In this document: positions 8,069 to 38,119 of the stretch, piece by piece
Layout of the letters: each line of letters opens with the position of its first letter
Position numbering within the stretch: position 1 is the stretch's first letter
From: an uncultured Gammaproteobacteria bacterium
GTDB taxonomy: Bacteria; Patescibacteriota; Patescibacteriia; Magasanikbacterales; GWA2-37-8
DNA length: 64,000 nt
Reading direction: 5' to 3'
Assembly (NCBI GenBank): GCA_964511375.1
Contig: CAZEEW010000002.1
Span: 36,157 to 100,156 of the forward strand
Position numbers and translations under genes: made by a program
Notes under the pieces: model-generated
What the model saw: only the letters and a program-made list of their open reading frames with translations
Databases searched by the model: none
What the model was told of the DNA's origin: nothing

Positions 8069-8105
8069 AAACACACCACCAGCTAAACTGGTGGTGTGTT
8101 ATATA
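8069..8105. terminator. Hairpin acacaccaccag/ctggtggtgtgt after Cys-rich gene; start of GC-rich islet 1
   Basis: 12-bp perfect stem, short loop. Confidence 0.5.
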
Positions 8106-8217
8106 CTAAATTCCTGTTCACGCGTATCTCCTTGTTATTCCCCCAAAACTTTAGGAAAATAACGGGCGGCGCGAACGAGGAACTTCGAGGTGGAGAATGC
8201 CACCCGTTGGCGATCGG

Positions 8218-8478
8218 TCAGTAGGTGTAACCTAGCTGCCGACGCCGTTCAGCTTCCGCGCGACGCTCGCGCTCCGCCGGTGCGAGCTTTTCGCACCGCG
8301 GGAGGAGGTTGCAGTCGAAGCAGGTCGACTGGACCTGCCCACCCATGGCGCGGGTGACGCGCTCGACGAAGTCGTGGCACGGGCTGTTCTTCAGTCCGCC
8401 GGCCCTCTTCCTCTCTTGGCCGGCCTTCCTCGTGGCTTCCCGGACTCTCTCGCGAGCCCGCCGCTGTTTCGCTCCCAT
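8218..8478 (-). CDS. GC-rich islet 1: small Arg/Lys-rich protein with Cys cluster (putative zinc-ribbon), 86 aa from ATG (TTG-extended ORF to 8529)
   Basis: ~65% GC segment 8150-8545 in a ~40% GC genome; GGAG 5 nt upstream of ATG; C-x17-C-x2-C-x5-C. Confidence 0.45.
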   Translation of the reverse strand: MGAKQRRARERVREATRKAGQERKRAGGLKNSPCHDFVERVTRAMGGQVQSTCFDCNLLPRCEKLAPAERERRAEAERRRQLGYTY

Positions 8479-8578
8479 GGCTTCTCCATGCACCCAGTAA
8501 ACCGGGGTGCCTCGGTGGACAATATACAACCACTATTTTATCTTGTTGTCAATTGTTTGTTTGCTGGGCTAACTAGGT

Positions 8579-8613
8579 ATTGACAAAAGACAGGGGATAT
8601 AGTAGAATTTCCG
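8579..8613 (+). promoter_or_regulatory. Sigma70-like promoter for rpsL-rpsG-fusA (TTGACA-17-TAGAAT)
   Basis: ttgacaaaagacaggggatatagtagaat. Confidence 0.55.
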
Positions 8614-8684
8614 CAGAACGTTGAACAAAAATCTCGTGGCTGAGCAATTTCGTTCAGCTTTTTTGTATCCAAGTTAATTTATTT

Positions 8685-9113
8685 ATGCCTACATTAAACC
8701 AAATAATGCGCAAAGGCCGAACCCCAAAGGTTCAAAAAACCAAGTCTCCGGCCTTGCAATTTACGGTCGACAACTTACACCGTAAGAAAACAGTTTTTGC
8801 AAAGGGAACCAGTTTTAAGCGTGGTGTTTGTACCAAGGTGTACACCACTACTCCTAAAAAACCAAACTCTGCTTTGCGTAAAGTTGCCAAAGTTCGTTTG
8901 TCCAATGGTATGGAAGTTATCGCTTACATTCCAGGCGAAGGACACAATCTTCAGGAACACTCTATCGTCCTTATCCGCGGTGGTCGTGTAAAAGACTTAC
9001 CAGGTGTCCGCTACCACATTGTACGCGGTGTTTATGATACTCAAGGTGTAGAAAAGAGACGACGTGGTCGCAGTCGTTATGGTGCCAAGAGACCGAAAGA
9101 AGCGAAAAAGTAA
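8685..9113 (+). CDS. rpsL: 30S ribosomal protein S12
   Basis: MPTLNQ…KGR…[10 protein letters not shown] hallmark. Confidence 0.95.
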
Positions 9114-9137
9114 TCTGTATTAGTAATCTAGAATATT

Positions 9138-9614
9138 ATGCGTGGAAATAATACTAAAAAGCGTGCTGTTCAACCAGACTTGAAATATGGTAATGTGAAC
9201 TTAGCACGGTTTATCAACTTCGTAATGCAAAACGGGAAAAAATCTGTTGCTCAACAGATCGTGTATTCCGCACTCGAAAAAGCTTCTCAAGAATTAAAGA
9301 AGGATGCTATTGCAATCTTTGATGAAGTGGTTCGCACAATTTCTCCTCAATTAGAAATTCGTACTCGTCGTGTTGGTGGTGCTAACTACCAAGTTCCAAT
9401 GCCGGTACGTGGTGACCGTCAGGTGGCTCTAGCTTTCCGTTGGATTATTGGCGCTGCTCGCAACAAGAAAGGCAAACCAATGGCAGATAAGCTAGCAACT
9501 GTTTTAGTTGAAAGCTTCCAGGGTGTTGGTGACGCTGTTAAAAAGCGTGATGATGTACATAGAATGGCTGAAGCTAACAAGGCTTTTGCCCACTTCGCCA
9601 ATTTCTCTCGCTAG
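9138..9614 (+). CDS. rpsG: 30S ribosomal protein S7
   Basis: Conserved S7 sequence, position after rpsL. Confidence 0.95.
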   Translation: MRGNNTKKRAVQPDLKYGNVNLARFINFVMQNGKKSVAQQIVYSALEKASQELKKDAIAIFDEVVRTISPQLEIRTRRVGGANYQVPMPVRGDRQVALAFRWIIGAARNKKGKPMADKLATVLVESFQGVGDAVKKRDDVHRMAEANKAFAHFANFSR

Positions 9615-9643
9615 AATAATTATTCAATTCATTTAAATTAATT

Positions 9644-11719
9644 ATGCCTCGAGAATTTAGTTTAGATAAAACTCGTAATATCGGTATTGCCGCGCACATT
9701 GATGCCGGTAAAACCACTACGACCGAACGTGTGCTTTTTTACACAGGTCGTAAACACAAAATTGGTGAGGTGCACGAAGGTGCGGCCGAAATGGACTGGA
9801 TGGAACAGGAAAAAGAACGCGGCATTACCATTACTTCCGCTGCGACTACTTGTTTTTGGAAAGATCACCGCATTAACATCATCGATACACCAGGTCACGT
9901 GGACTTTACTGTAGAAGTAGAACGTTCTTTGCGTGTATTGGATGGTGCAGTGGCTGTTTTCGATGGTTCACAAGGTGTTGAACCGCAGTCTGAAACTGTC
10001 TGGCATCAAGCAGATAAATATCACGTACCTCGTGTTTGTTTTATTAACAAAATGGACAAGATGGGCGCGGACTTTTACATGAGCTTGGATTCTATCCGGG
10101 AACGTTTGTCTCCAAATGCTTTTGCTATTCAGTTACCAATCGGTCAAGAAAGTTCCTTTAGTGGTATCATTGATCTTATTGAAGAAAAAGCTTACAAATT
10201 TGAGGGTATGAATGGTGAAAAAATGATAGAAATTGACATTCCTGAGGACATGAAGGAAAAAGTGAAAGATCATCGCCATAAAATGGTAGAAAAAGTGGCT
10301 GAAGCCTCTGACGATCTCATGACCAAGTATTTGAACGGTGAAGCCTTAAGCATTGAGGAAATTAAAGCTGGGATCCGTGCTTTGGTAGTTAAAAATGCCA
10401 TGCAACCAGTTATCTGTGGCTCTGCTTTAGCCAACATTGGTGTTCAATTAATGTTAGATTCGGTTGTTTGGTACTTACCATCACCATTGGACGTACCTCC
10501 AGTAAAAGGTATTAATCCAAATAATGAACAAGAAGAAGAAAGAAAAACCAGCGACGACGAATCGTTCTCTGCTCTAGCTTTCAAGATTGCCACTGACCCC
10601 TTCGTTGGTAAACTCGCTTTCTTCCGTGTTTATTCTGGTAAGATTTCTGCTGGTAGTTATTTATACAATGCCACGACTGGTAACAAGGAGCGCTTAGGTC
10701 GTATCGTCCGCATGCATGCTAATCATCGGGAAGACGTAACTGATGTTTACGCTGGTGAAATCGCTGCCGCCATTGGTTTGAAAGAAGTTACTACTGGTGA
10801 CACTTTGTGTGATGAGAATAAACCAATTGTTTTGGAAAAGATTACTTTCCCAGAACCGGTTATCTCAGTTGCGATCGAACCAAAAACCAAGGCTGACCAA
10901 GAAAAGATTGGCTTGGCTTTACAGAAATTGGCTGAAGAAGATCCAACCTTCAAAGTCCATACTGACGAAGAAACTCTCCAGACTATTATTTCTGGTATGG
11001 GTGAGTTGCACTTGGATATTATCGTTGACCGCATGAAACGCGAGTTTAAAGTAGAAGCCAACGTCGGTGCCCCACAGGTTGCTTACAAAGAAGCAATTAA
11101 GATGAGCGCTGAAGGTGAAGGTAAATACATTAAACAGTCTGGTGGTCGTGGTCAGTACGGTCATTGTTGGTTACGTGTTGAGCCACAGGAGCGCGGTAAA
11201 GGTTTTGAATTTATTGATGAAGTTAAAGGTGGTGTAGTTCCTCGTGAATACTTACCAGCGATTGAAAAAGGTGTCAAAGAATCCATTTCACGTGGTATCC
11301 AAGCTGGGTACCCGGTTGTAGATGTTAAAGTTACTTGTTTTGATGGTTCTTACCACGAAGTTGACTCTTCAGAAATGGCCTTTAAAATGGCCGGCTCCAT
11401 GGCTTTCCAGGATGCCTGCCATAAAGGTAATCCGGTAATATTGGAACCAATCATGAAGGTGGAAGTAGTCACACCAGAACAATATATGGGTGAAGTAATT
11501 GGTGACCTTAACTCCAAGCGAGGTCAGATTCAAGAAATGACTGATCGTGGCCAGATGAAAGTTGTTCGGGCCATGGTACCCTTGGCAAGCATGTTTGGTT
11601 ATGCCACCTCTTTACGCAGTATGTCTCAGGGTCGCGCTAGTTACGCAATGGAATTCGATCATTACGCTGACGTACCAAACAATGTTGCTCAACAGATTAT
11701 TGAGGGAAAGAAGAAATAG
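9644..11719 (+). CDS. fusA: Elongation factor G
   Basis: [32 protein letters not shown]; 691 aa. Confidence 0.95.
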
Positions 11720-11735
11720 CCTCTTAAACGATGAA

Positions 11736-11764
11736 AGCCTCGCATTGAGCGGGGCTTTTCTTTT
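11736..11764 (+). terminator. Rho-independent terminator after fusA (aagcctcgc-attga-gcggggctt-TTTT)
   Basis: Stem-loop + T-run; near-identical copy at 12461-12487. Confidence 0.7.
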
Positions 11765-11827
11765 GCAACTCTCTTGTTGACTTAAGAAAAATATTTTATA
11801 CTATGACCGTAACTAATTTAGGATATT

Positions 11828-12457
11828 ATGGGAGATAAGCCAGCATTTTTTGGAGACAGAATCCACAACGCACTGGATCAGAAAGAAATTCAATACGAAA
11901 TTAAGACCCCGCCCGTCTGGTATATACAGGGCTCTTATGTCTTGGACAAAATATTTGGTGTACGTTTAGCGAGAGATGTAGACATTTTTGCCCCACAAGG
12001 AGGCAGCCCGCCTCAATTAGAAACTATTGATGATCTGCCTGTCCACCTGACTGAGGTCGGGGATAAATCATATTTTCCGCCTGTGCTTGGCACGTATAAT
12101 ACTGACCGCTATCTGCTTGATCCTGCTGGGCAGGTTATAAAACCAAGCGGTTTCCCGGAGCGGCCCATAAGATTAGAGTTGTTGCCCGGGAGAAAATTAA
12201 GTATTGTTAACGTTGTCCGTGGAGTTAAGGTTTGTAAAAGGTATGGTTTAGAATACTCTCCTGAATTAAAAGATGAGATGACTAAGTCACTACGCAAATT
12301 ACTAAGTAAACAATCGATGGCGATGCTCATGATATTTAGCGAATCAGATTTGGCTGAATTTATTAAAGAAACTGTTGAAGCAGAAACTTCTGAAGAAGAG
12401 AGAGGAAAAGTTTGGCAGGAAATGATAGCCTTGTGCCCGAAATTAGCTAGTAAATAA
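11828..12457 (+). CDS. Nucleotidyltransferase-fold (Pol beta superfamily-like) protein, hypothetical
   Basis: GS-x12-DVD motif (GSYVLDKIFGVRLARDVDIF) typical of minimal NTase fold. Confidence 0.45.
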   Translation: MGDKPAFFGDRIHNALDQKEIQYEIKTPPVWYIQGSYVLDKIFGVRLARDVDIFAPQGGSPPQLETIDDLPVHLTEVGDKSYFPPVLGTYNTDRYLLDPAGQVIKPSGFPERPIRLELLPGRKLSIVNVVRGVKVCKRYGLEYSPELKDEMTKSLRKLLSKQSMAMLMIFSESDLAEFIKETVEAETSEEERGKVWQEMIALCPKLASK

Positions 12458-12460
12458 ATC

Positions 12461-12487
12461 AAAGCCCCGCATTGTGCGGGGCTTTTG
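12461..12487. terminator. Bidirectional terminator (gccccgc-attgt-gcggggc), near-identical to the fusA terminator
   Basis: Perfect 7-bp GC stem + T-run; 24/26 identical to 11736-11761. Confidence 0.7.
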
Positions 12488-12793
12488 TTAGGCCGCTTCC
12501 TTGTTCTCTTCATCATCTGGACTTGAGACATCTGGATCTAATTCCAGTTCTTCATTTTCATCGTTTCCTGGTCCACCGAAAGCATCGCGCCTCAAACTTT
12601 CCTCTGTATCTTCATCATCAAACATCTCGTCTAGACTTTTCCCTGGCACTTCCGTACTTTTCAACTCGTGAACTGCTTTTTGTAAAGGTGTTTCTTTTCT
12701 TTTGGCACCGGGTATTTCTGGTGGTAATTCAGAGGTATCAAAAATCTCGTCTATAGATTTTCCTAGTTTAGGCTCACCATTTTTTCTTAGCAT
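12488..12793 (-). CDS. Small acidic protein with internal repeat (GKSIDEIFD… / GKSLDEMFD…)
   Basis: ORF with two ~35-aa acidic repeats; no known motif. Confidence 0.4.
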   Translation of the reverse strand: MLRKNGEPKLGKSIDEIFDTSELPPEIPGAKRKETPLQKAVHELKSTEVPGKSLDEMFDDEDTEESLRRDAFGGPGNDENEELELDPDVSSPDDEENKEAA

Positions 12794-12798
12794 ATAAA

Positions 12799-13770
12799 TT
12801 ATTTTAAAAATACATTACGAATAACTTGGTCGATTTCGACTTCGTTAATAAGAATATCATCAACCGGAAAATCATTCAAGAGTTTTATGGCAACTTGTTT
12901 CGCTTCTGTCTTTGGCACTTCTAAAACCGTTCGCTGCGGTGTTTTTTCTTTAATATTCCCTAATTTCTCTAAAGAACTATTTTGAATAGGTTCAGTAAAG
13001 GTCACTTCCAAAACTTTGTGATGTACGTATTGGTCGATTAATTTTCTTAGTCCACCATCGTAAATAATATTACCGTGATTAACAATGATTACCCTTTCAC
13101 ACAAAGCTTCAACATCTTCCATATAATGCGAAGTGAGTACGATCGTAATCTTTTTTTCTCTGTTGTACTTTTTTAAGAATTCTCTAATGTTGTTTTGAGA
13201 TATCACATCCAAACCAATCGTCGGCTCGTCCAAGAATAATACCTTGGGGGAATGAATTAAGGCCGCAACTAACTCACATTTCATTCTTTGGCCTAAAGAT
13301 AATTTACGAACTGGAATATCTAAGATGTCTTTAATATCTAGCAAAGTCGTTAATTCCTCTAAGGTTTGTTCAAACTGTTTTTTTGGTATTTCGTAAATTT
13401 CTTTGTTTAAAATAAAACTTTCCATGGCTGGTAAATCCCACCATAGCTGGTTTTTCTGACCCATGACTAGAGCAAATTGTTTCTGGAATTCTGCCTGTCG
13501 TTTCCAAGGAGTAAAGCCTAACACTTTCGCCTCTCCCGAGGTGGGGTAAAGAATACCGGAAAGCATTTTCAGTGTCGTCGTTTTACCGGCACCATTTGGT
13601 CCTAAGAAACCCACCATCTCTCCTTCTTGAATAGTAAAGTCTATTTGTTTTACTGCTTCAGTATAAAGTTTTTGTCGATGGAATAAACTTTTGACTGAGT
13701 TCCACAGCCCAGCTTGTTTTTTGTAATATTCGTAGGTTTTAGATAAACCTTTAACTTCAATAATCGCCAT
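12799..13770 (-). CDS. ABC transporter ATP-binding protein
   Basis: Walker A GPNGAGKTT, signature LSLGQ, Walker B LFLDEPT. Confidence 0.9.
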   Translation of the reverse strand: MAIIEVKGLSKTYEYYKKQAGLWNSVKSLFHRQKLYTEAVKQIDFTIQEGEMVGFLGPNGAGKTTTLKMLSGILYPTSGEAKVLGFTPWKRQAEFQKQFALVMGQKNQLWWDLPAMESFILNKEIYEIPKKQFEQTLEELTTLLDIKDILDIPVRKLSLGQRMKCELVAALIHSPKVLFLDEPTIGLDVISQNNIREFLKKYNREKKITIVLTSHYMEDVEALCERVIIVNHGNIIYDGGLRKLIDQYVHHKVLEVTFTEPIQNSSLEKLGNIKEKTPQRTVLEVPKTEAKQVAIKLLNDFPVDDILINEVEIDQVIRNVFLK

Positions 13771-13793
13771 ATGGTTTGGTTAGATTACTTTTA

Positions 13794-14587
13794 CTAAATG
13801 CCCACTCCCTCATATTTCTTAATACCAAAATGCCATGTGATTTTGATTGCAATAAATAAAATGCCGATCCACATTACTTCGATACCGATCCCTTTCCAAG
13901 CAGTTACTAGAGGCATCCTCCCTAAAAAGATTTGGGCAGGTACAAAGAAACTGTAGGCAAAAGGTAAGAAAAAACTCATAGTAACAAACCAAGTCGGTAA
14001 AAGATTGAGAGGAAAATATCCACCAGCAAAGAAACGGCGCAGGCGTAAGATAATAGTATTCAACCCATGTACTTCATCCTGCCAAAAGTAATAAGACCCG
14101 TAAGATATGAAATGAACATTTCAATTATAAATGATAACGCTACCATTATTAGTATTGTTATAATTACAATTGGATCACTATTTAATTTCAGTCGATCGAG
14201 AAAAAATAAAGTAATGACTAATTGTGTTGTAAAGGCAAGAATAGTTACTAGACCAATCCGACCGATTTCTCGAACTAAAATATATCTAAAATAGCTAATC
14301 GGTTTTAATATATGAGTAGTTAAAAGACCTTCTTTGATATCTCTGGCGACAACTTCATAAAGGAAGTTACGAATTGCGACTGAAATAAGATTGCCAATCA
14401 ATAAATAGGTTAGCATCTCTGGTAGAGTGTACCCACCAATAATATTATTTCCCTGATATATTGCTGACCACATTAATATAACAATGAGCATCTCAGCGAT
14501 ATCACCGAAACGATAAGCCACTATGTCAAAGCGGTAAGTTAACGAACGCTGGAATGCCATTTTGATGATCGTTGCATTTTTGCTCAT
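13794..14587 (-). pseudogene. ABC-2 family permease, third paralog, split by a -1 frameshift at ~14060 (N-part 14060-14587, C-part 13794-14063)
   Basis: 175-aa + 89-aa ORFs overlap by 4 nt; C-part ends GIKKYEGVGI like paralogs (…GIKKYSSEGI, …LKKYSSASS); combined ~264 aa vs 261/265 aa paralogs. Confidence 0.55.
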
Positions 14588-14588
14588 A

Positions 14589-15374
14589 CTAACTCGACGC
14601 GCTTGAATATTTTTTTAAGCTATTATTCCAAAACAGAATTGATCCGTAAATCCAAAGACCGGTAATTAAAAAAGCCAGTAATATATTTTGCCAGCTTAAT
14701 AATCCTAATAGCCCTTTCACGGGGAAAGCCACAATTACGAAAATAGGCAGGATGAAAGTAAAAAAGAATTGAAACGCTGAGTTAAATATTTCCGGTGGAA
14801 AGCTGCCAAGATACAACCCACGACGATACAGCCATATGACACTATCACTTTCTTCGGTCCTAATTGTAATAGCGGCTGTTAAAACATGCATGCCCATTAC
14901 AATTATCATTCCTAATATAATGAGTAATATGTACCATGCCATTTCCGCCCATCCCCAAGTAAGAGGTAACCTCTGGATTACTAGTATTGTGAGTACAATT
15001 AAAATAGAGCTGAAAATAATATCTAGTAGGTCGGTTAAACGGGAGAGGATGTAGAAAAGAGTGTTTACGGGTTTTGGTAAAAGATAATCCAATTGTCCTC
15101 GCTGGATATCGTTTTTAAATACATATACACCACGGAACAAAGCTTGGGCTAATGAATCGATGAGGTTAAATGTTAAAAAGAAAAGCAAGGCTTCGTATTT
15201 ACCGTAGCCAGAGATATTGTCGGTAAAACGAAAGATGGAAAAGATCATGAGGGCGAAGAAACCAAAACGTATAATTTTGCCAATAAAATAGCTTACCGTA
15301 TCAATACGATTTGTCGCATAGCTCATGAAAGCACAGTTGGTAAGTTGTACCCAGACTCGAACGTGTTTAATCAT
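14589..15374 (-). CDS. ABC-2 family transporter permease (paralog 2)
   Basis: 6 TM hydrophobic protein, C-terminal …LKKYSSASS shared motif, adjacent to ABC ATPase. Confidence 0.75.
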   Translation of the reverse strand: MIKHVRVWVQLTNCAFMSYATNRIDTVSYFIGKIIRFGFFALMIFSIFRFTDNISGYGKYEALLFFLTFNLIDSLAQALFRGVYVFKNDIQRGQLDYLLPKPVNTLFYILSRLTDLLDIIFSSILIVLTILVIQRLPLTWGWAEMAWYILLIILGMIIVMGMHVLTAAITIRTEESDSVIWLYRRGLYLGSFPPEIFNSAFQFFFTFILPIFVIVAFPVKGLLGLLSWQNILLAFLITGLWIYGSILFWNNSLKKYSSASS

Positions 15375-16168
15375 ATGCCTTCACTGGAATATTTTTTAAT
15401 TCCCGAATTAAACATCAGTCTATTTAGGCCTACTAAAATTATTAGCCACATCACACCGCCAAAAATGTAAAAAGGCATGTCAGTAAGTATTCCTTTTTTG
15501 AGGAAGATCATGAGTGGGTGGTAGATCATGTAGATGAAAGGTAGTTTATGTAGAATGGAAAAGAAAATCCCACCAGTTAAAATTGAGATTGGGAAATATG
15601 CTCCAGAAGCAAATTCCAGGATCCATTCAAATAAAAATCGCGGCCCCATTGCTTCGCGTGACCAAAAGGCTAGATAATTAAGTAGAGTGCTAAAAAAGAA
15701 GTAAAGTAACTGAGCAAGAATGATCGCCAGGATAAAATAAAACCAGGTTGTGTAACTGGTTGGTATAAACCAGTCAACCTTAAGAAGATAGGTTAAGATT
15801 AGTGTTTCAACTATGGCCGCTAAAGTTCCTACCAGGCGTTCTGCTAATTCTTCAAAATAATAGAAGGCTACAGAATTAAATGGTTTAACCAAATTGACAG
15901 AGTACGTACCTTTGTTGATATCACTCGCCATGCGCCTAGTTTGGCTGCCAAAAACAAAAGCCCGAAGGATGTTTACTAGAAGAACGTAAGTAGCGATTTC
16001 TTCCGGTGTAAACCCAGCAAATCGGCCGGTTTGGCGAGCGAGGGTGACCCAGAGGAAGTACAAAAGAAGAATAGTAACTAAACCTTGCAATCGGCCAATA
16101 AGAAAATTAAGTCGGTAGGCGAAAATCGATCCAATCCGATTCTTAAAAACTAGCCAGTATTTGTTCAT
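15371..16168 (-). CDS. ABC-2 family transporter permease (paralog 1)
   Basis: Polytopic membrane protein, C-terminal GIKKYSSEGI. Confidence 0.75.
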   Translation of the reverse strand: MNKYWLVFKNRIGSIFAYRLNFLIGRLQGLVTILLLYFLWVTLARQTGRFAGFTPEEIATYVLLVNILRAFVFGSQTRRMASDINKGTYSVNLVKPFNSVAFYYFEELAERLVGTLAAIVETLILTYLLKVDWFIPTSYTTWFYFILAIILAQLLYFFFSTLLNYLAFWSREAMGPRFLFEWILEFASGAYFPISILTGGIFFSILHKLPFIYMIYHPLMIFLKKGILTDMPFYIFGGVMWLIILVGLNRLMFNSGIKKYSSEGI

Positions 16169-16171
16169 AAC

Positions 16172-17725
16172 TTAAATTAGCGATTGGCTTGTCATTTCCT
16201 GGGGTTGATCTAAACCAAGTAGAGCGAGAATAGTTGGAGCAATCTGGTTTAAATAACCAGTTTGAGGAAGATTAAGGCCAGGTTTGGTAATGACCAACGG
16301 TACGTGGTTGAAGGTGTGAGCCGTATGAGGTTCCTCTCCGCTCCACATACTTTCGATGTTGCCGTGGTCAGCGGTAATAACCATAGTATATCCCAATTCC
16401 TCTGCCTTGGGAACTATGGAAGACAAAGCTTTATCAACTAATTGTACAGCTGTGGCCGCCGCTGTCATATCTCCACTGTGGCCAACCATGTCTCCATTTG
16501 CGATATTACAGACAATTAGAGAAAACTCATTGCGTTCAATTACGCGCAGTAAGCTGTTCGTTACTTCCGGTAAACTCATTTCTGGATTAGAAGCATAATT
16601 CATGAGACCAAGTGACGGAACCACTAATCTTTCTTCGCCTGGGAAAACGTCTTCGCGTCCGCCATTAAAGAAGTAGGTGATGTGAGCATATTTCTCTGTC
16701 TCGGCTACTCGGAATTGTTTTAATCCTTTTTTGCTTACCCACTCGCCGATGGTGTTAAGGGGAAGCTCATTGGGGAATAACACAGCTACGTTAGTGAAAT
16801 CTTTATCGTATTCAATTAGACTCGCTAAATACAGATTACTTGGTATCTGTAGAGTGTTTTGCACAGTATGTGGTGCACGTTTTGTAAGTAGGCGCACTAA
16901 TTGTCTCATGCGGTCAGCACGGAAATTGAAGAAAATAACGGCGTCGTTTTCTTTAACCACGTCATCACTAAAGCGTGTTGGCTGGATAAACTCGTCAGTG
17001 ATTTCCTCAGAGTATTGGCTGTCTAAGAATACCTCTGGCTTAACTAAAACCAACTCATCTTGTTCGGTCATCGCCTTATAAACAGTCGTGGTTCGATCCC
17101 AGTTTTCACTACGATCCATCGCAATCGCTCGGCCAGTCATTGTCGCAATTCTAATCCCTTCAGACAGGTGGGGCTTTAACGTTTCCAACAATTTTCTAGC
17201 GCTTTTCGGCGCCATGTCGCGGCCATCTAAGAATAAGTGAATCGCGGTTTTCAGGTTGTTATCCTTTGCCCACTCGACTAGGGCAATAATATGATTAATG
17301 TGTGAGTGGATGCCACCGTCGCTAAATAATCCTGCTAGATGCAGTATTCCCTTGTTTAGAGTTAAATGTTTTTTAACCTCTTCTAATTTTGGATTCGTTT
17401 TAAAAGTATTAGTTTCAATTGCGTTGTCGATTTTCGCCGCATTCTGGTAGATAATTCTGCCTGCACCCATGGTCATATGCCCTACTTCCGAACCAGACAA
17501 GCATCCTTTCGGTAAGCCCACTGATTCCTCTTTGGCATGTAAGACCGTGTTGGGGTAATTTTTGAGTAGCTCATTCCAGAATTTTGGTTGAGTTTGAAAA
17601 ATAGCATTGTGTTCATTGTTTTCACCGGTTCCCCAACCGTCTAAAATTAATAAGATTACTTTCTTGTCCCCCAGTTTTTTATGACTCATAAATATATTAG
17701 ATTTTAAACCTGACAGTGAGGGCAA
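16172..17725 (-). CDS. gpmI: 2,3-bisphosphoglycerate-independent phosphoglycerate mutase
   Basis: ILDGWG, 517 aa iPGM architecture, Mn-binding DHGN. Confidence 0.9.
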   Translation of the reverse strand: MPSLSGLKSNIFMSHKKLGDKKVILLILDGWGTGENNEHNAIFQTQPKFWNELLKNYPNTVLHAKEESVGLPKGCLSGSEVGHMTMGAGRIIYQNAAKIDNAIETNTFKTNPKLEEVKKHLTLNKGILHLAGLFSDGGIHSHINHIIALVEWAKDNNLKTAIHLFLDGRDMAPKSARKLLETLKPHLSEGIRIATMTGRAIAMDRSENWDRTTTVYKAMTEQDELVLVKPEVFLDSQYSEEITDEFIQPTRFSDDVVKENDAVIFFNFRADRMRQLVRLLTKRAPHTVQNTLQIPSNLYLASLIEYDKDFTNVAVLFPNELPLNTIGEWVSKKGLKQFRVAETEKYAHITYFFNGGREDVFPGEERLVVPSLGLMNYASNPEMSLPEVTNSLLRVIERNEFSLIVCNIANGDMVGHSGDMTAAATAVQLVDKALSSIVPKAEELGYTMVITADHGNIESMWSGEEPHTAHTFNHVPLVITKPGLNLPQTGYLNQIAPTILALLGLDQPQEMTSQSLI

Positions 17726-18564
17726 AAATGTGTCCCACGACCAACCAGGCGTACTTTTTTAATGATATGTTTTTTACATTTTTTACATTTTTTATTGCCT
17801 CGTCCATAGACATTGAGAAAATCATAATGTTTACCTTTTTGTCCCTTTAGATCAATGTAATTGCTAAAACTTGTTCCTCGGTTTTTAATTCCTAGTTCCA
17901 GTACCCTCCTACAAGCCGCATGCAGTTTTCTAACCTCATAGTCATTTAAAGATCTAGCTGTACGGTCTGGTAAAACTCCAGCGAAGAAGCATGCTTCATC
18001 GGCATAAATATTACCGAGGCCAGCAATCAGTGTTTGGTCTAAAAGTAAAGCCTTTAGTTTTGTTTTTCTTTTTTTTAATAAGTTTTTAAAGTAAGCCAGA
18101 GTAAATTTGTGATCTATTGGTTCAATACCAAATCTAGCGCGCGCTTTTTGTAGACCAACGTCATCGACAACTTGCATGAATCCGAATCGCCGCAAGTCAT
18201 TAAAATACAGTTTTGCCCCGCTGGAAAAACTGAAAACTACCCGGGTAAACTTATTTGGTAAACTGGCTTCAATATTTGTAAAAGGATGCCCACCAGAAAG
18301 ACGTTTCTTTTTTTCTTCCAAAATAAACTGACCAGTCATCTTTAAATGAGTGAGCAAATACTGGTCCTCTTGTAAAACAAAAATTAAGAGCTTACCAACA
18401 CGGTCGATTCTTTTGAAGCAGTTATTAAAAACAGGTTTTTTAAAATCACTAATTTTACCACGGATAGTTTGTGGAGACAGTACTTCAAGAGAAGTAATTT
18501 TTTTATTCAATATATGTGCTTCTAAGTCTCGACGAATTGTTTCGACTTCTGGCAATTCAGGCAT
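17704..18564 (-). CDS. mutM: Formamidopyrimidine-DNA glycosylase
   Basis: N-terminal MPELPEVETIRR, C-terminal zinc finger CxxC…CPHCQ. Confidence 0.9.
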   Translation of the reverse strand: MPELPEVETIRRDLEAHILNKKITSLEVLSPQTIRGKISDFKKPVFNNCFKRIDRVGKLLIFVLQEDQYLLTHLKMTGQFILEEKKKRLSGGHPFTNIEASLPNKFTRVVFSFSSGAKLYFNDLRRFGFMQVVDDVGLQKARARFGIEPIDHKFTLAYFKNLLKKRKTKLKALLLDQTLIAGLGNIYADEACFFAGVLPDRTARSLNDYEVRKLHAACRRVLELGIKNRGTSFSNYIDLKGQKGKHYDFLNVYGRGNKKCKKCKKHIIKKVRLVGRGTHFCPHCQV

Positions 18565-18741
18565 ATAGTTTATTAAATAACCAGTTAATCATATTACTGT
18601 AAAGACAGAAAAAAATCAACAATTTTTTCATTAAAAAGTCAAATTTATGGTCCACTAGCGTTGACTTATTGTACACCTGGGTTACTGTACTAAAATGGTA
18701 TGACTTCGTAGTCCCAGCGCAAGCTGGGGGAGGAGTACAAC

Positions 18742-19656
18742 ATGTGGTGGGTTTTCGTGGCTGCCGTTTCGGCTGCTGTCGGTCAGCCTCCTGACGAGTG
18801 TTGGCAACCGGCCCGAGCCGCGCTGGAATCAGTCGGCGCTGTCTGGACCGGCACGCAGCCAGACGACACCCGTGTCGGCTGCCGTGAGGTGGTCGACGGA
18901 ATGTGGGGATCCTGGGAGTACACTGAGGAGAAGCTGGCCCGCTCAGCCGAAAGAGACGGTTGTCGTGGAGCCAGAGTGCTCCATAGGAGCTATGCTGCTG
19001 GACCCGCCGGGTGCAGTGTCATCTGTGTGCGCCTCAAGTGTTACGCCGAGGATGTTGACCTGGCGCCGGAGATGGAGACCGGCATCGACGAAGTCACGCT
19101 CCTCGCTCTCCTCAGGAAATCGGAACCTGAGGAGCAGCTTCCTGAGGAAGACGACTACGCATCTCTGGAGGCTGCTTCGGAAGAAGCGGTCCACCCAGAC
19201 GAGGAGGAGCTTGTTCCTCCAGACCCTCCGTCTTCGGAGGATCCAGCTCGGCTCGCCGGCGACATGACTGGGCTGGCGGTTCTCCTCGAGAGACAGTCCG
19301 GGTCGTCCGAGACTGAGATGCGCTTTCCTCGTCGGAACGCGAAGCTGGCTCAGCCGGTGTATGAGCCGGAGCCTATCGCTGACTCGGTCGTGGCCGAGGC
19401 GAATCCTCAGCCAATTGCGATACTCGAGCAGGCTCCCTCAGTGCCGGAGTCCCCGCTGCCGGCTGCTTCCCCCGAACTTCGTGCGTTCCAGGTGGAGATT
19501 GGGGGTATGATCGACGAATTTCGCCGCTCGCGTGAGTCTCTCAGGGAGAAGCGGCGGGAGATGCGGGAACGTTCCCGCGCCATTCGCGATGACTGGCGGC
19601 GCAAGCGTGACGCTTTGCGTTTCCAGACTCGCCAACTCGGGGCAGCGCGTCCTTGA
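18742..19656 (+). CDS. GC-rich islet 2: 304-aa Pro/Glu/Arg-rich hypothetical protein
   Basis: ~63% GC block 18716-19735; GGAGG 8 nt upstream of ATG while native genes lack SD; hairpins after stop; no recognised domain. Confidence 0.4.
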   Translation: MWWVFVAAVSAAVGQPPDECWQPARAALESVGAVWTGTQPDDTRVGCREVVDGMWGSWEYTEEKLARSAERDGCRGARVLHRSYAAGPAGCSVICVRLKCYAEDVDLAPEMETGIDEVTLLALLRKSEPEEQLPEEDDYASLEAASEEAVHPDEEELVPPDPPSSEDPARLAGDMTGLAVLLERQSGSSETEMRFPRRNAKLAQPVYEPEPIADSVVAEANPQPIAILEQAPSVPESPLPAASPELRAFQVEIGGMIDEFRRSRESLREKRREMRERSRAIRDDWRRKRDALRFQTRQLGAARP

Positions 19657-19825
19657 AGGGGCAGCTGTCCTTCGCCCCTCGATCTGAGGTATCGGGTCGA
19701 GGGCTGTGTCACGAGCGTCAAATGTTTTGGCTCTGGTGAAACCGTATTCATACACAGTTAATACACACAATTTTCGTTGACGAGACGATATATTTTGTTA
19801 TAATGATGAGGTAATTATTGAATTT

Positions 19826-20308
19826 ATGAATAATAATCAATTGGATAGGGTTTTACGCTTAGTTAAGCGAACAGGAGACAAGGTGGTTGTTTTAGATCGT
19901 GCGAGCGATGCGGCAGTAGTACTCATGGATCTAGATGATTATGAATTATTACTAGAGGAAAGTTTTACGAACGATGGCGTTGGTCCTACGAATTTAGACA
20001 ACGATTCTTTCGCTGACTGGGAAATAGACGATGCACACAATGAAGATCAAGAGACTGAAGAAATAGCTCATGAAGACACAGATGAACCTCTAGCCCCACT
20101 CGATACTCTTGAAGAAGAGTTACCTTTAGAATCCTTCGAAAAGGAAGTTGCTGAACACGGTGACGGAGTAGGAGAAGATCTGGTGGCTGAGCCTATAGTT
20201 GAAGCATTGCCAACTCAAGATAGAAATATTTCGCTAGACAAAGAGGAAAAAATAGATGATTTGCCTGACGACGGCGAAGAAGAGCGCTTCTATTTAGAGC
20301 CGGTTTAG
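19826..20308 (+). CDS. Acidic protein with Phd/YefM-antitoxin-like N-terminus and long D/E-rich tail
   Basis: N-term DRVLRLVKRTGDKVVVLDRASDAAVVLMDLDDYELLLE resembles Phd/YefM fold; no adjacent toxin. Confidence 0.4.
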   Translation: MNNNQLDRVLRLVKRTGDKVVVLDRASDAAVVLMDLDDYELLLEESFTNDGVGPTNLDNDSFADWEIDDAHNEDQETEEIAHEDTDEPLAPLDTLEEELPLESFEKEVAEHGDGVGEDLVAEPIVEALPTQDRNISLDKEEKIDDLPDDGEEERFYLEPV

Positions 20309-20425: not shown

Positions 20426-20434
20426 GCACACGCT

Positions 20435-32694: not shown

Positions 32695-32735
32695 AAAAAC
32701 CCAGTACTATATAGTGCTGGGTTTTATTGTTTCGG
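32695..32735 (+). terminator. Terminator after secY (aaaaacccagtact-atat-agtgctgggttttattgtt); near-duplicate after asnS
   Basis: Stem + T-run; same frame aaaacccag…ctgggttttattgt as 37478-37512. Confidence 0.6.
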
Positions 32736-32741
32736 TTTATA

Positions 32742-32797
32742 CTTCTCGACTCTCCAGAAAAGTCTATCTTAAACTTCTCTGGAGTCCAGTCGAGAAG
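32742..32797. repeat. Imperfect ~20-bp-arm inverted repeat (cttctcgactctccaga … tctggagtccagtcgagaag) at edge of GC-rich islet 3
   Basis: Seen directly; no T-run, so not an obvious terminator. Confidence 0.5.
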
Positions 32798-32834
32798 CGC
32801 GGGGTGAAGGCGCGACGCGTCTGTCCTCCGCCCC

Positions 32835-33125
32835 TTAGGTCAAGAATGCCTCGAGCAGGGCTCTGACGATCGTTCGTCCGAGCTGGTTCTGCAGGGTCGG
32901 CATTGCCGAGCCCGTCATCCCGGCTAGGAAGAAAATCGCCGCAACCGCACCGAGCGCTACCCCGGTAAGGGGAGGGTGCGGAGGGTTCTTGAGTCCGTCG
33001 TTAATCGCTGCCGCAGTTGCGACAGCAAGCGTCAGTGCTCCTAGTACGGTCCAGATCATATTCTTTCCTCCTCTTGTTTCCGTTGCGAAACAGCCAACTT
33101 TATCACAAACTCCGCCCATTGTCAA
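32835..33125 (-). CDS. GC-rich islet 3: small two-TM membrane protein (74 aa from ATG at 33059 with AGGAGG SD; longer 96-aa ORF to 33125)
   Basis: ~62% GC block between secY and adk; strong SD; two hydrophobic helices with G/A-rich faces. Confidence 0.45.
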   Translation of the reverse strand: MTMGGVCDKVGCFATETRGGKNMIWTVLGALTLAVATAAAINDGLKNPPHPPLTGVALGAVAAIFFLAGMTGSAMPTLQNQLGRTIVRALLEAFLT

Positions 33126-33147
33126 GTCTAAAAACCTATGGTATAAT
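33119..33147 (+). promoter_or_regulatory. Sigma70-like promoter for adk (TTGTCA-17-TATAAT)
   Basis: ttgtcaagtctaaaaacctatggtataat. Confidence 0.5.
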
Positions 33148-35118: not shown

Positions 35119-35850
35119 ATGCAAGCCATTATCTTGCGTCGCCAAGATTTCCGGGAATATGATGAGATTATTACGTTATACACCCTAGAAGGAGGCAAAG
35201 TAAACGCCCTGGCGAGAAGCGTAAAAAAAATTACCAGTAAAAATTCGGCTCATCTTGAGCCTTTTTCTTTAGTCGAAGCGGAGATTATTAAGGGCCAGGA
35301 AGTCCAACATATTATTAAGGCCCGCGGTTTGAATATCTTCTTAGGCTTAAGAAACAATCTTAAGAAAATGTCCATGGCGGCATTTATTGTTCATCTTTTT
35401 GACCAGCTTTTAGAAGTGGGGGAAAGAGATGAACAGCTTTTTTATCTGCTGCAAAGTTGGTTGGAGTTTCTGGATGTTTGTCATACTCCAAATAATATCC
35501 TAGTTTTAGGCTTAGAGATTAAGTTACTGCAACGCTTAGGTTTTACACCAATTCTCGACGACTGTGGCTTGGACCATGAGCGCCTTGGAGAAACTAATTT
35601 CTTTTTTTACCCAGCTGGTGGGATGTTGCTTTGTGAAAGTTGCGCCAAATTTAAAAGACAAAGCAACGAGGAATTGGTTGTTTTTAATCGAGGTCTTCAA
35701 GATGGTTTGAAAGTTTTGTTATATGGTGATTGGAAGAAAATTAGTGAATTAACTTTGAGCGAAAAAGAGATGAAGCACTTAGAAATTTCAGTATACTTGT
35801 TTTTGCGTTACCACACAGAGAAAAAGATTATAAGATTTAAAGGAGTTTAA
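35119..35850 (+). CDS. recO: DNA repair protein RecO
   Basis: N-terminal OB region MQAIILRRQDFREYDEIITLYT, CxxC zinc motif. Confidence 0.8.
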   Translation: MQAIILRRQDFREYDEIITLYTLEGGKVNALARSVKKITSKNSAHLEPFSLVEAEIIKGQEVQHIIKARGLNIFLGLRNNLKKMSMAAFIVHLFDQLLEVGERDEQLFYLLQSWLEFLDVCHTPNNILVLGLEIKLLQRLGFTPILDDCGLDHERLGETNFFFYPAGGMLLCESCAKFKRQSNEELVVFNRGLQDGLKVLLYGDWKKISELTLSEKEMKHLEISVYLFLRYHTEKKIIRFKGV

Positions 35851-35858
35851 TTAGAGAA

Positions 35859-35880
35859 CCCCACGACCGTGGTCGTGGGG
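35859..35880. terminator. Perfect GC hairpin ccccacgacc-gt-ggtcgtgggg after recO; edge of GC-rich islet 4
   Basis: 10-bp perfect stem; no T-run. Confidence 0.45.
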
Positions 35881-35906
35881 GCTGTGGGCCTTGCGCTTGG
35901 ACGGGT

Positions 35907-36041
35907 TTAACCACCACAAGCTGCTCGCAGGGCCAGGACAATAAATCCGACGATGATCAGGGCGCCAATCGCCCTAAATATCCCGCCGAAGATGAGGCAG
36001 ATCAGGCCGAGCGCAAACCCGGCCAAAAACCAACTTAGCAT
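35907..36041 (-). CDS. GC-rich islet 4: 44-aa hydrophobic single/double-TM peptide (MLSWFLAGFALGLICLIFGGIFRAIGALIIVGFIVLALRAACGG); below the ORF-track size cutoff
   Basis: GGAGG 5 nt upstream of ATG; ~62% GC; translated by hand. Confidence 0.4.
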   Translation of the reverse strand: MLSWFLAGFALGLICLIFGGIFRAIGALIIVGFIVLALRAACGG

Positions 36042-36153
36042 TTGTCCCTCCTAGTCGCCTTATTGAATTTTATATCATTCTATCCTCTTCAGCAAAACTT
36101 GCTAAAATTAGCGAAAAATGGTAAGCTAAAAAGGCTTTAAGCTTTGAAAACAT

Positions 36154-37446
36154 ATGTATTCCCTAATAAAAGATTTATCTAAACATGTTGGTGAAGAAGT
36201 AGTAATAAAAGGGTGGTTGTATAACAAGCGTTCTTCTGGCCCGATTGCTTTTCTTGAACTTCGAGATGGTTATGGTTGGGTACAGGGCGTGGTTGTTAAA
36301 AACGACGTCTCTGAGAAAGTGTGGCAAGACGCTGAGAAATTAACACAAGAGTCTTCTCTTGAATTAGTCGGTGTTGTGACTAAACATCCTAAAAAGGAAA
36401 ATATTTTTGAACTCCAAGTTAAAGACATTAAAGTAATTCAAATATCAGGAGAATATCCAATTGCTTTAAAAGAACATGGCCCGGACTTTTTAATGGATAA
36501 CCGTCATTTGTGGCTAAGAAGTAAAAAACAATGGGCGCTCTTACGTCTCAGGGATGCAATTATTACTGCTGTTAATGAATATCTGCATCAAGAGAATTTT
36601 ATTAAAGTTGATTCACCGATTTTTACACCAAATGCTTGTGAAGGCACAACCACATTATTCCCGGTGCCATATTTTGATCTTGGTACAGCTTATTTGTCTC
36701 AATCCGGTCAGTTGTATATTGAGGCTGCTATTGCTTCCGTTGGCCGTTGTTATGACTTTGGTCCAGTGTTTCGCGCCGAGAAGAGTAAGACCAAGCGCCA
36801 TTTAACCGAATTTTGGATGATGGATGCCGAAGGTGCCTTTATGGAGCATGAGGATAATTTAAAAAACCAAGAGGGTTTAGTACGTTATGTCGTACGTTAC
36901 GTTTTAGAACATTGTGATGAAGAATTAACTGTAATGGAAAGAGATAAAGAAAGATTGCGTCAAGCTGATGCTCCATTTACACGATTGACATATGACCAAG
37001 CGATTGAAAAACTTCATGAATTAGGATCAGATATTAAGTACGGTGAAGATCTGGGTAATGACGATGAAGGTCTTTTGACCAAAGATAGTGTTGTGCCAGT
37101 GTTTATTGAAAAATGGCCGAAAAGTATTAAGCCGTTTTACATGAAGCGTGACCCAAATAATGCTGAGCTGGTTTTAAATGACGACCTAATTGCCACCGAT
37201 GGTGGGGGAGAATTAATTGGTGGTAGCCAGCGCGAAGATAATTTTGATCTTTTGCTTGAACGTATTAAACATGAAGGCCTCCCAGTGGAAGATTATGAGT
37301 GGTATTTAGATTTACGTCGCTACGGCGCAGTGCCACATTCAGGATTTGGTATTGGTCTAGAACGCACTGTGCGCTGGATCTCTGGTACCGAACACATTCG
37401 TGAGTGTATCCCATTCCCGAGGACGATTGGAAGATTGAAACCGTAA
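36154..37446 (+). CDS. asnS: Asparaginyl-tRNA synthetase (class IIb)
   Basis: Motif 2 FRAEKSKTKRHLTEFWMMDAE, motif 3 GFGIGLERTV, 430 aa. Confidence 0.8.
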   Translation: MYSLIKDLSKHVGEEVVIKGWLYNKRSSGPIAFLELRDGYGWVQGVVVKNDVSEKVWQDAEKLTQESSLELVGVVTKHPKKENIFELQVKDIKVIQISGEYPIALKEHGPDFLMDNRHLWLRSKKQWALLRLRDAIITAVNEYLHQENFIKVDSPIFTPNACEGTTTLFPVPYFDLGTAYLSQSGQLYIEAAIASVGRCYDFGPVFRAEKSKTKRHLTEFWMMDAEGAFMEHEDNLKNQEGLVRYVVRYVLEHCDEELTVMERDKERLRQADAPFTRLTYDQAIEKLHELGSDIKYGEDLGNDDEGLLTKDSVVPVFIEKWPKSIKPFYMKRDPNNAELVLNDDLIATDGGGELIGGSQREDNFDLLLERIKHEGLPVEDYEWYLDLRRYGAVPHSGFGIGLERTVRWISGTEHIRECIPFPRTIGRLKP

Positions 37447-37477
37447 CGAGAAAAGGAGCATTAAAGTTCAAGAAACA

Positions 37478-37512
37478 AAAACCCAGCGCTAATTGCACTG
37501 GGTTTTATTGTG
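37478..37512 (+). terminator. Terminator after asnS (aaaacccagcgc-taatt-gcactgggttttattgt)
   Basis: Near-duplicate of secY terminator. Confidence 0.6.
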
Positions 37513-37525
37513 TTCCTTGATCTTA

Positions 37526-37583
37526 CGCTTCGCAGTTGATCTGAAATAACAATTGTTATTATCTCAGACCGACACTGCGAAGC
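37526..37583. repeat. Inverted repeat cgcttcgcagt … actgcgaagc enclosing a perfect 16-bp palindrome AATAACAATTGTTATT (37545-37560)
   Basis: Seen directly; operator-like symmetric site at the edge of GC-rich islet 5. Confidence 0.6.
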
Positions 37584-37612
37584 ATCGGACGCGCACACGC
37601 GCATGTTGGGGA

Positions 37613-38002
37613 TCAGAATCGGAGGGGGGTCGATGCCAGCTTGTCCCGTAAGTCCTTGAGGACCTGGTTTCGGTAGGGGAAGTACTCTGACCCGGTGCTG
37701 AGCTCGAGCCACATGCACCGCTCGCCGTGCTGTAGGTAGACTTCTACCGCGTCGTTGGAACAGCTTGGTGCACACCAGGGATCGATCTTGTACATCTCTG
37801 GGATGCGATCGAAGCTGTTCTCCAGCGCGTAGAAGACACCCTTGTCACAGTAAGACTTGACGACGAGCAGACGCCCTTCAGTTTGCGAGCGCAGAACTTG
37901 GTTGCTCTCGCGGTACAGCCGTGGACAAAACCACCCGAACAAGAACCAGATCACCGCGATCGTCGTCGCCGTCTTCATCGCCGCCGAGGTAAGCCTTTTC
38001 AT
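37613..38002 (-). CDS. GC-rich islet 5: 129-aa signal-anchored/secreted protein with 4+ Cys
   Basis: GGAG 7 nt upstream of ATG; N-terminal hydrophobic MKTATTIAVIWFLFGWF; ~60% GC. Confidence 0.45.
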   Translation of the reverse strand: MKRLTSAAMKTATTIAVIWFLFGWFCPRLYRESNQVLRSQTEGRLLVVKSYCDKGVFYALENSFDRIPEMYKIDPWCAPSCSNDAVEVYLQHGERCMWLELSTGSEYFPYRNQVLKDLRDKLASTPLRF

Positions 38003-38119
38003 CACTTAACTCCATGCGCCATCCAGGCGCTCTGTTGTCGAGGAACAAGTGATTATAGCAAAGAGAGAGAGAGTTGTCAAGATGGTCTAACAGAATTGTC
38101 TTTAATATTACCCAAAAAA

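Follow-up and report, generated by a model that had tools for sequence, protein, structure and literature searches.

What are five short GC-rich blocks doing between the core genes of an AT-rich bacterial chromosome, and did they arrive there recently from a GC-rich donor? The question is raised by a stretch of 64,000 nucleotides (nt) from an uncultured bacterium (contig CAZEEW010000002.1, positions 36,157 to 100,156; assembly GCA_964511375.1), here called the window, which has an overall GC content of 41.6%. The blocks, or islets, have as neighbours the ribosomal-protein, translation-factor and tRNA-synthetase genes of the str/S10/spc ribosomal region. The SecY relatives place the contig in Candidatus Magasanikbacteria (Patescibacteria/candidate phyla radiation, CPR), and not in Saccharibacteria. 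CPR bacteria are uncultivated episymbionts whose host-interaction genes are mostly unknown.

An initial annotation of the window regarded the islets as an acquisition from a high-GC donor whose genes use Shine-Dalgarno (SD) sequences, for example an actinobacterial host if the organism is an episymbiont. The reading that we favour, and hold to be moderately probable, is a different one: the islets would be clade-specific cassettes, autonomous and modular, that express small envelope or secreted proteins; they would be similar to the phage genes known as morons, long resident in these genomes and reshuffled there.

Composition and translation signals of the islets

Islets were called in 100-nt windows with GC > 55%, and only five segments longer than 180 nt pass this threshold in the window: 8140-8543 (islet 1, 62.6% GC), 18689-19758 (islet 2, 61.9%), 32740-33074 (islet 3, 58.5%), 35833-36062 (islet 4, 54.8%) and 37548-38055 (islet 5, 55.9%). 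The five GC-rich islets described initially are therefore real, although the GC content then given (about 60-65%) is too high for islets 3-5, which are nearer 55-59%. Each islet contains one dominant open reading frame (ORF), named I1 to I5, of 86, 304, 74, 44 and 129 amino acids (aa) as originally described, and in 5/5 a GGAG(G) motif is located 4-7 nt 5' of the ATG.

Both the composition and the translation signals of these ORFs are as atypical as had been proposed. Their GC content at third codon positions (GC3) is about 0.62-0.79, that is 6-10 standard deviations above the native ORFs (0.365 +/- 0.042 for 63 ORFs, each 100 aa long or longer), and an SD-like motif of any kind precedes just 5/63 (8%) of the latter, in line with the earlier statement that native genes are essentially SD-less. 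A scan for a strong SD followed by ATG and an ORF gave I2, I3 and I4 as its sole intergenic matches, the rest being inside annotated genes; I1 and I5 carry only the 4-mer GGAG and are not listed by this filter. The annotated frame has the highest GC3 on its strand (for I1, 0.80, the top of three frames). GC3 exceeds the GC content at second positions (GC2) in all five ORFs, and I1, I5 and the cassettes of the sister genomes described below follow the order GC3 > GC1 > GC2, I2 being exceptional (GC1 0.73 > GC3 0.66).

Each islet is a complete transcription unit

Hairpins or terminators adjoin every islet, as initially noted, and together with a promoter, a leader and an ORF they make each islet a complete transcription unit, referred to below as a cassette. 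The 5' untranslated regions (UTRs) are GC-rich, and in I2 and I5 a short stem-loop immediately precedes the SD. The stop codon is followed by one or two GC hairpins, to which I3 and I5 add a bipartite hairpin of ~60 nt with an AU-rich inner stem; fold z-scores of the 3' UTRs are about -7 to -9 (-4.0 for I1).

Cassette 5, on the - strand, has a perfect promoter (TTGACA-17-TATAAT, 12/12 plus TG, 38052-38080) with a (CT)5 tract in the spacer. This promoter is part of a 5' module (38016-38095) that has ~15 conserved nt at its distal end and contains a stem-loop, GCGCC...GGCGC (38016-38030). An SD (GGAG, 38010-38013), ORF I5 (37613-38002), a small GC hairpin (GCGCGUGUGCGCG, 37589-37603) and the bipartite hairpin (37527-37583) follow; the 3' structures together (37527-37603) have z = -9.2. 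The cassette is closed by a bidirectional terminator (37478-37506) that also ends asnS. The (CT)n tract recurs in the spacers of I5-type promoters elsewhere (~11886-11914 of locus L002, which belongs to genome A, and ~1738-1767 of L187, which belongs to genome B); the spacer length is 17 nt for the window and the cassette L187a but 15 nt for genome A. Slippage in this tract could act as an on/off switch of the promoter (phase variation).

Cassette 3 is built in the same way on the - strand: a promoter (TTGACA-17-TAAAGT, 33097-33125, 10/12 in the consensus scan), an SD (GGAGG, 33067-33071), ORF I3 (32835-33059), a bipartite hairpin of ~58 nt of the GCUUCNC...GNGAAGY family (32741-32798, z = -8.9) and a bidirectional terminator, AAAACCCAG...CTGGGTTTT (32696-32725), that also ends secY. 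In cassette 4, also on the - strand, the promoter (TTAGCA-17-TAGAAT, 36077-36105, 9/12) stands back-to-back with that of asnS and is followed by the SD (GGAGGG, 36046-36051), ORF I4 (35907-36041) and a GC hairpin with a terminator (35859-35880) common to recO. The -35 hexamers of the - strand cassette promoters and of the + strand adk and asnS promoters overlap back-to-back (TTGTCA/TTGACA; 33119-33147 and 36077-36110). At the first of these sites it is the -35 of the adk promoter (33119-33147, + strand) that overlaps the -35 of cassette 3. The core gene downstream thus takes part of its promoter from the end of the cassette, which also divides the ancestral secY-adk operon.

Cassette 1 (- strand) has a -35 hexamer, TTGACA, at 8547-8552 with a weak -10, an SD (GGAG, 8484-8487), ORF I1 (8218-8478), a long 3' hairpin with a mixed outer stem and an AU-rich inner stem (8108-8185, 3' UTR z = -4.0) and a bidirectional intrinsic terminator (8070-8100, with a T-run after its 14-bp stem on the - strand) common to the upstream 270-aa gene. 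Cassette 2, the only one on the + strand, starts with a promoter-like region, TTGACT ... TAAAAT (18661-18696), conserved in three genomes. Its 5' UTR stem-loop (CCCAGC/GCTGGG, 18713-18735) abuts the SD (GGAGGAG, 18729-18735) of ORF I2 (18742-19656), and the 3' region (19657-19760) comprises GC hairpins without a T-run (19655-19673 and 19676-19703) and then a conserved block. The promoter of the next gene is at 19777-19804. The sequence of the I2 leader stem has changed in both sister genomes and its pairing has been kept, as judged by eye from the alignment, the pairs being uncounted.

The outer stem of the bipartite hairpin covaries among six cassettes and has G-U pairs in the sense orientation only, which argues for a role at the RNA level. 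In its strict form this motif occurs at I3 and I5 only. A search of the window against Rfam returned three tRNAs and nothing else.

Insertion, synteny and relocation in sister genomes

About 180 loci were fetched for comparison. Two sister species, assembled from other samples, could be read: genome A (loci L002, L008 and L179), with ~81% nucleotide identity to the window in the ribosomal-protein operon, and genome B (L187 and L185), 88.6% identical to genome A in the same operon. A further locus, L010, lies at the same distance from genome A and could be part of genome B, a membership that is unconfirmed (it has no sequence overlap with L187). Between the window and genome A, core genes have a synonymous divergence (dS) of 2-4, that is, saturated, and a third-position identity of ~0.5. 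The closest metagenome relatives at JGI, sought through fusA, were at best just 80% identical and uninformative on islets 1 and 2.

The cassettes are insertions, as had been suspected: the gap between secY and adk is 23-70 bp in many Magasanikbacteria, and that between asnS and the metallophosphoesterase gene is 6-85 bp in others. Two of the cassettes are syntenic. In the window as in genomes A and B, I2 stands between fpg and a 160-aa gene, with alignable UTRs and ORF ends, and its GC3 is 0.66, 0.67 and 0.71, respectively. I4 occupies the recO-asnS gap of the window, of genome A and of L010, and is tandemly duplicated in the last two. Across all these genomes the GC3 of the cassettes is 0.62-0.86 despite the saturated dS of the core genes. 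The foreign-looking composition is thus stable and not fading, since I2 and I4 are syntenic across this divergence and yet GC-rich. The initial annotation had set syntenic islets with host-like codon usage against its own proposal: synteny is found for I2 and I4, but their codon usage is still that of GC-rich genes.

The other cassettes have been replaced or moved. The homologue of I5 in genome A is located in the secY-adk gap, not after asnS, and is 71% identical to it from promoter through terminator, the similarity ending at TTGTCAAG. The secY-adk slot is accordingly occupied by I3 in the window, by the I5-like gene in genome A and by an unrelated Cys-rich ORF of 249 aa in L010. Before rpsL, the window has I1 where genome B has an unrelated ORF of 79 aa, and a slot between the 546-aa and the 270-aa genes is filled in genome B and empty in the window. 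I1 and I3 are unique to the window genome among the sequences examined.

The repeated architecture that had been remarked upon extends to the sequence of the flanks, which are common to cassettes with unrelated ORFs. A 3' module is 90% identical over 125 nt between such cassettes; a 5' module is 96-97% identical over 30-46 nt, and 88% over 41 nt in the two cassettes of L187. Flank homology ends ~8-23 nt before the ATG and restarts 7-24 nt past the stop codon, and the identity of the flank modules is equal to or higher than that of the ribosomal-protein operons of genomes A and B. No further copies of the modules were found in the window or in the fetched loci beyond genomes A and B.

Products of the cassettes

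The ratio of non-synonymous to synonymous divergence (dN/dS) reaches 0.23 in I5 and 0.30 in I2, whereas core genes have values of 0.01-0.10. These values identify I2 and I5 as real, fast-evolving genes, whose proteins are under relaxed purifying selection. I2 has a hydrophobic N-terminus, an alpha/beta domain of ~90 aa with six Cys, a disordered acidic and Pro-rich linker and a long, conserved, basic C-terminal helix. The model of its N-terminal domain has a predicted local distance difference test (pLDDT) score of 70-82, and a Foldseek search with this domain against the PDB gave nothing with E < 0.07. I5 consists of an N-terminal membrane anchor and a domain with five conserved Cys, all of them kept in the homologue; its structure model (pLDDT 44) is unusable.

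I4, an entirely hydrophobic peptide of 44 aa, has the C-terminus ACGG. In the family of 43-47-aa hydrophobic peptides of which it is a member, this ending is invariant in 5/5 members (35907-36041 of the window, 14690-14833 and 14988-15119 of L002, and 6587-6730 and 6892-7023 of L010). The window copy pairs a type-B ORF with a type-A 3' region, resembling the recombinational collapse of two tandem copies. I3 has two transmembrane (TM) segments. I1 has basic tails and four Cys arranged as C-x18-C-x2-C-x5-C, and lacks a TM segment.

None of the five ORFs gave a significant family match in Pfam, PHROGs, NCBIfam or PADLOC, and a sequence search of the PDB with I1 and I2 only returned nothing. The I5 family has two members, the second being a 126-aa protein of genome A, and the I2 family has four among 1.84 billion representatives. 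No homologue of I1 appeared in the large-database search, and I3 had no tblastn match in the fetched loci (its remote homologues were not searched for). Outside the immediate clade no homologue of I1, I2 or I5 was found in 5.8 billion clusters and 1.84 billion representatives, where I3 and I4 were not searched, and the viral contigs of IMG/VR contained no match to the proteins or the modules. The products are thus mostly small membrane-anchored, secreted or Cys-rich orphans, suggesting a role in the cell envelope or in the interaction with a partner.

SD sequences and GC excess in other Magasanikbacteria

Ribosomal-protein genes lack an SD in 75/75 Magasanikbacteria loci tested, over a GC range of 28-62%; SD-less initiation of core genes is therefore a phylum-wide trait. 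In a survey of 2,056 called genes, from the window and from loci of at least 8 kb of 80 Magasanikbacteria species, 42 genes have a strong SD: 17/74 (23%) of those with a GC3 excess and 25/1982 (1.3%) of the others. A complementary control motif was found in 0/74 of the GC3-excess genes. Orphans make up 9/10 of the GC-rich genes sampled from other Magasanikbacteria species, and one GC-rich island encodes an M1 aminopeptidase and resembles ordinary horizontal transfer.

Larger GC-rich islands (1-3 kb, 15-25 points above background) are also seen in other Magasanikbacteria, often just 3' of asnS (L028:18019-21025, L020:17816-21014, L022:11589-15035, L037:19689-20831 and L084:8390-9657). They hold orphan ORFs of 320-780 aa, and rRNA is ruled out as their cause, as none lies inside them. 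Among relatives from Hainich groundwater with identical RpsL, some strains carry an SD-led ORF of 117 aa and short GTCATTGCGAGGAGC-type repeats immediately upstream of the rpsL promoter (L090:5441-6212) and others have nothing there (L091:380-430 and L089:9780-9800).

Genome A contains a diversity-generating retroelement (DGR) in which every mismatch of a 137-nt repeat falls at an adenine of the template repeat (TR). In L179 the target gene is at 11-580, the variable repeat (VR) at 442-578, the TR at 973-1109 and the reverse transcriptase gene at 1458-2546. The target gene has 64.6% GC and a GC3 of 0.91, against 36.5% and 0.41 for the reverse transcriptase. GC-richness thus tracks an accessory, presumably surface-exposed class of genes and not whole imported elements. 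The DGR is missing from the window at the equivalent place (11720-12799), and the window contains no TR/VR repeat and no reverse transcriptase.

A model for the cassettes and the points that weigh against it

Taken together, these data are consistent with the following model. A cassette consists of a sigma-70-type promoter, a short, GC-rich leader in which a stem-loop adjoins a strong SD, one small ORF, one or two hairpins and a terminator, bidirectional and intrinsic, that serves the upstream core gene as well. Such cassettes fill slots in the intergenic DNA where operons meet, and more distant relatives have nothing in these slots; I2 and I4 have been inherited vertically, and I1, I3 and I5 replaced or relocated. 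Turnover most likely takes place by recombination within the conserved flank modules, which are common to cassettes with unrelated ORFs, at different loci and in different genomes. The exchangeable unit would be the ORF with ~20 nt on either side, and DNA taken up from relatives could supply new variants. Core genes of the phylum initiate on A/U-rich leaders without an SD, and a strong SD probably compensates for the GC-rich, structured leaders of the cassettes, allowing translation to start on them. GC-richness itself appears to be a stable, maintained property of this class of genes in the clade, and not an un-ameliorated trace of a recent high-GC donor. Its maintenance could be due to selection acting on the composition or stability of the mRNA, to GC-biased gene conversion in hot spots of recombination, or to continual exchange within a pool of GC-rich cassettes.

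Several observations weigh against this model. The codon-position GC pattern of the ORFs is that of genes from a genome of ~60% GC, which keeps an ultimately foreign origin in play. ORF bodies are not convincingly more structured than shuffled sequence (fold z = -0.3 to -2.5), so that selection for RNA structure is not demonstrable as the cause of GC-richness. The promoters of I1 and I2 fail the strict consensus scan. The coding status of I1 and I3 depends on frame-specific GC3, the SD and ORF length, as neither has a homologue among the sequences examined. The dS of I5 (1.1) is below that of the core genes, a value in keeping with horizontal exchange later than the split of the species. Neither a recombinase or transposase nor a defined site of recombination was found, and at the lone comparison of an empty with a filled slot a target-site duplication is unreadable because the genomes are ~77% identical there; the mechanism of exchange is for both reasons one that we infer. 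Finally, about half of the Parcubacteria have been reported to lack the anti-SD motif (Tsurumaki et al. 2022, PMC9297842), and the 16S gene, sought in all fetched loci for an anti-SD check, is present in none of them. In favour of functional SDs, these are conserved between orthologues despite saturated divergence.

A bolder form of the cassette model is a tentative one, which we judge rather improbable. It would see here an undescribed cassette system, free of integrase and transposase, in which a portable chassis (consensus promoter, 5' stem-loop with SD, covarying bipartite 3' hairpin and bidirectional terminator) swaps unrelated GC-rich ORFs among slots and serves a second, SD-dependent regime of translation. 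If true, it would apply to Magasanikbacteria, and perhaps to other CPR bacteria, and the codon usage of their accessory envelope proteins would be held GC-rich.

Alternative explanations

The strongest rival, possible but clearly less probable than the cassette model, is import from a pool of GC-rich, SD-using donors (a host, another bacterium or a mobile element) under native signals, possibly repeated at the same slots. This would account for the order GC3 > GC1 > GC2 in most ORFs, as in genomes of ~60% GC, for an SD in every cassette of a recipient whose core genes have none, for the insertions relative to distant relatives, and for the low dS of I5 together with its different site in the sister genome; the M1 aminopeptidase of another GC-rich island is a case of what looks like ordinary transfer. 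However, no homologue was found outside the clade or in viral contigs, I2 and I4 have kept their place in sister species across saturated dS with no amelioration, the GC-rich UTR modules are clade-specific and common to several cassettes, and nearly all the GC-rich genes sampled from other Magasanikbacteria are orphans as well. A recent acquisition from the donor put forward in the initial annotation, such as an actinobacterial host, is not supported: the promoters and terminators are of native type, and the organism is a member of Candidatus Magasanikbacteria of unknown host and not a Saccharibacterium.

I4, and perhaps I3, could be modules of the type I toxin-antitoxin kind, or selfish membrane-peptide modules, with a structured, stable mRNA and an SD for tight translational control. 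The 44-aa hydrophobic I4 and the 74-aa I3 with its two TM segments have the appropriate size and character, both are intergenic with a strong SD and GC hairpins on their flanks, and I4 is tandemly duplicated in genome A and L010. We consider this unlikely, since the consensus scan shows no antisense promoter or small RNA, neither peptide matches a known toxin family, the minimum-free-energy fold does not clearly sequester the SD, and I1, I2 and I5 are left unexplained.

It is more doubtful still that I1 and I3 are non-coding, either GC-rich structured elements or decayed remnants in which long ORFs arise from the rarity of stop codons. Both strands of the islets do contain several overlapping ORFs, and the two proteins have no homologue among the sequences examined, but the annotated frame has the top GC3 of its strand and an ATG optimally spaced from an SD, the architecture is shared with the demonstrably coding I5 and I2, there is no Rfam match, and the fold z-scores of the ORF bodies are weak.

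A chimeric assembly, or contamination by reads of a high-GC organism, is hardly credible and the islets are no assembly artefact: one Logan contig does end inside islet 1, but islet 2 and its flanks (6.6 kb of context) are identical in an independent Logan assembly, homologous GC-rich cassettes occupy the same junctions in several sister genomes assembled independently from other samples, and the GC-rich bodies run without a break into the AT-rich promoters and terminators. The contig in question (L190, Logan SRR5011273_696042, an independent assembly of the same sample) breaks at the equivalent of ~8395 of the window, a break that could come from low coverage, GC bias or strain heterogeneity.

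Comparison with known systems

The closest parallel to the cassettes are the phage morons defined by Juhala and Hendrix and reviewed by Cumby et al. (2012, PMC3594210), whose definition they match in all respects except residence in a phage. They are likewise independent transcription units of one ORF with their own promoter (consensus in I3, I4 and I5, weaker in I1 and I2) and terminator, inserted between genes that are adjacent in relatives and unlike their neighbours in composition; in both cases the products are often small membrane or surface proteins and the insertion mechanism is unknown. In contrast to morons, they reside in the core chromosome of a CPR bacterium, with no phage genes nearby, no PHROG match and no relatives in IMG/VR. 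They are also GC-richer than their host, have in common a covarying hairpin and conserved modules in the 5' and the 3' flank, and some have been vertically stable over a long time. A phage origin was rejected, as no protein or module matched IMG/VR.

Integron cassettes, including the isolated attC cassettes without an integrase, are similar in that small, mostly orphan ORFs are each followed by an imperfect hairpin of ~60 nt, and in that unrelated ORFs are exchanged inside a conserved framework. The core of attC consists of R''/R', RYYYAAC ... GTTRRRY. The hairpin of the cassettes ends in GCTTCNC ... GNGAAGY, without an R''/R' core or GTTRRRY, and was rejected as an attC site. Unlike attC, it has G-U pairs that indicate an RNA structure in the sense orientation, and the cassettes are scattered instead of arrayed, each with its own promoter and terminator. 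Neither IntI nor attI was seen, and no integrase occurs among the called genes of the syntenic sister loci, the whole genome not having been searched.

Flexible genomic islets, hypervariable hot spots that recombine through their flanks, also show unrelated genes in the same slot, conserved flanks and products that are likely surface-related. The cassettes differ from them in being single genes of 0.3-1.1 kb, in carrying portable regulatory modules that recur at other loci, and in their distinct composition and mode of translation initiation. With type I toxin-antitoxin systems (hok/sok, ldr, ibs/sib, AapA/IsoA) I4 and I3 have in common a small hydrophobic peptide, an intergenic position, a structured mRNA, a strong SD and tandem copies in relatives; the 44 aa of I4 fall below the usual limit of ~60 aa, and I3 has 74 aa. 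They differ in that the consensus promoter scan identified no antisense RNA gene and that no family matches them, and the other three cassettes encode larger or soluble proteins. As for the variable-protein genes of CPR DGRs, the target of genome A is of the same GC-rich accessory class; a DGR was rejected for the window itself, whose five ORFs have no variable-repeat signature.

What has been found are, then, autonomous accessory cassettes in chromosomal hot spots. Their rapidly exchanged, clade-specific small envelope proteins provide a concrete list of candidates for host interaction. The coexistence of an AT-rich, SD-less core with GC-rich, SD-led accessory genes would be a testable case of two regimes of initiation in one cell, which bears on the reports of anti-SD loss in many Parcubacteria. 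Methods that detect transfer from composition would mis-date such cassettes, because their GC3 of 0.66-0.9 has outlasted the saturation of synonymous sites in a genome whose native GC3 is 0.37. The compact modules (promoter, UTR and terminator) might also be useful for genetic tools in CPR bacteria.

Other features of the window

The interval between fusA and tuf is ~8.8 kb in the window (11720-20556), where it contains an ABC transporter, phosphoglycerate mutase, fpg, islet 2 and the 160-aa gene; in most relatives the two genes are adjacent or separated by a few hundred bp to ~2.4 kb. Just 3' of fusA, a 209-aa ORF (11828-12457) is flanked by direct repeats of 70 nt (11714-11783 and 12441-12510), 71% identical and each with a terminator hairpin, so that it resembles an AT-rich inserted gene with a duplicated terminator.

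Upstream of islet 1 (5497-8055), the 546-aa gene has a guanylate/adenylate cyclase domain and its neighbour, the 270-aa gene, is Cys-rich and DUF7107/Dickkopf_N-like. A free-standing 190-aa ORF (39133-39705, - strand) between the metallophosphoesterase gene and tRNA-Leu gives weak matches of the intein/LAGLIDADG type (the N-terminus of WhiA and an intein-containing helicase) and is possibly a homing-endonuclease-like gene. At 51996-53358 the gene of a 189-aa sigma factor of the extracytoplasmic function type overlaps the ORF after it, whose 271-aa product has no family match and may be an anti-sigma factor.

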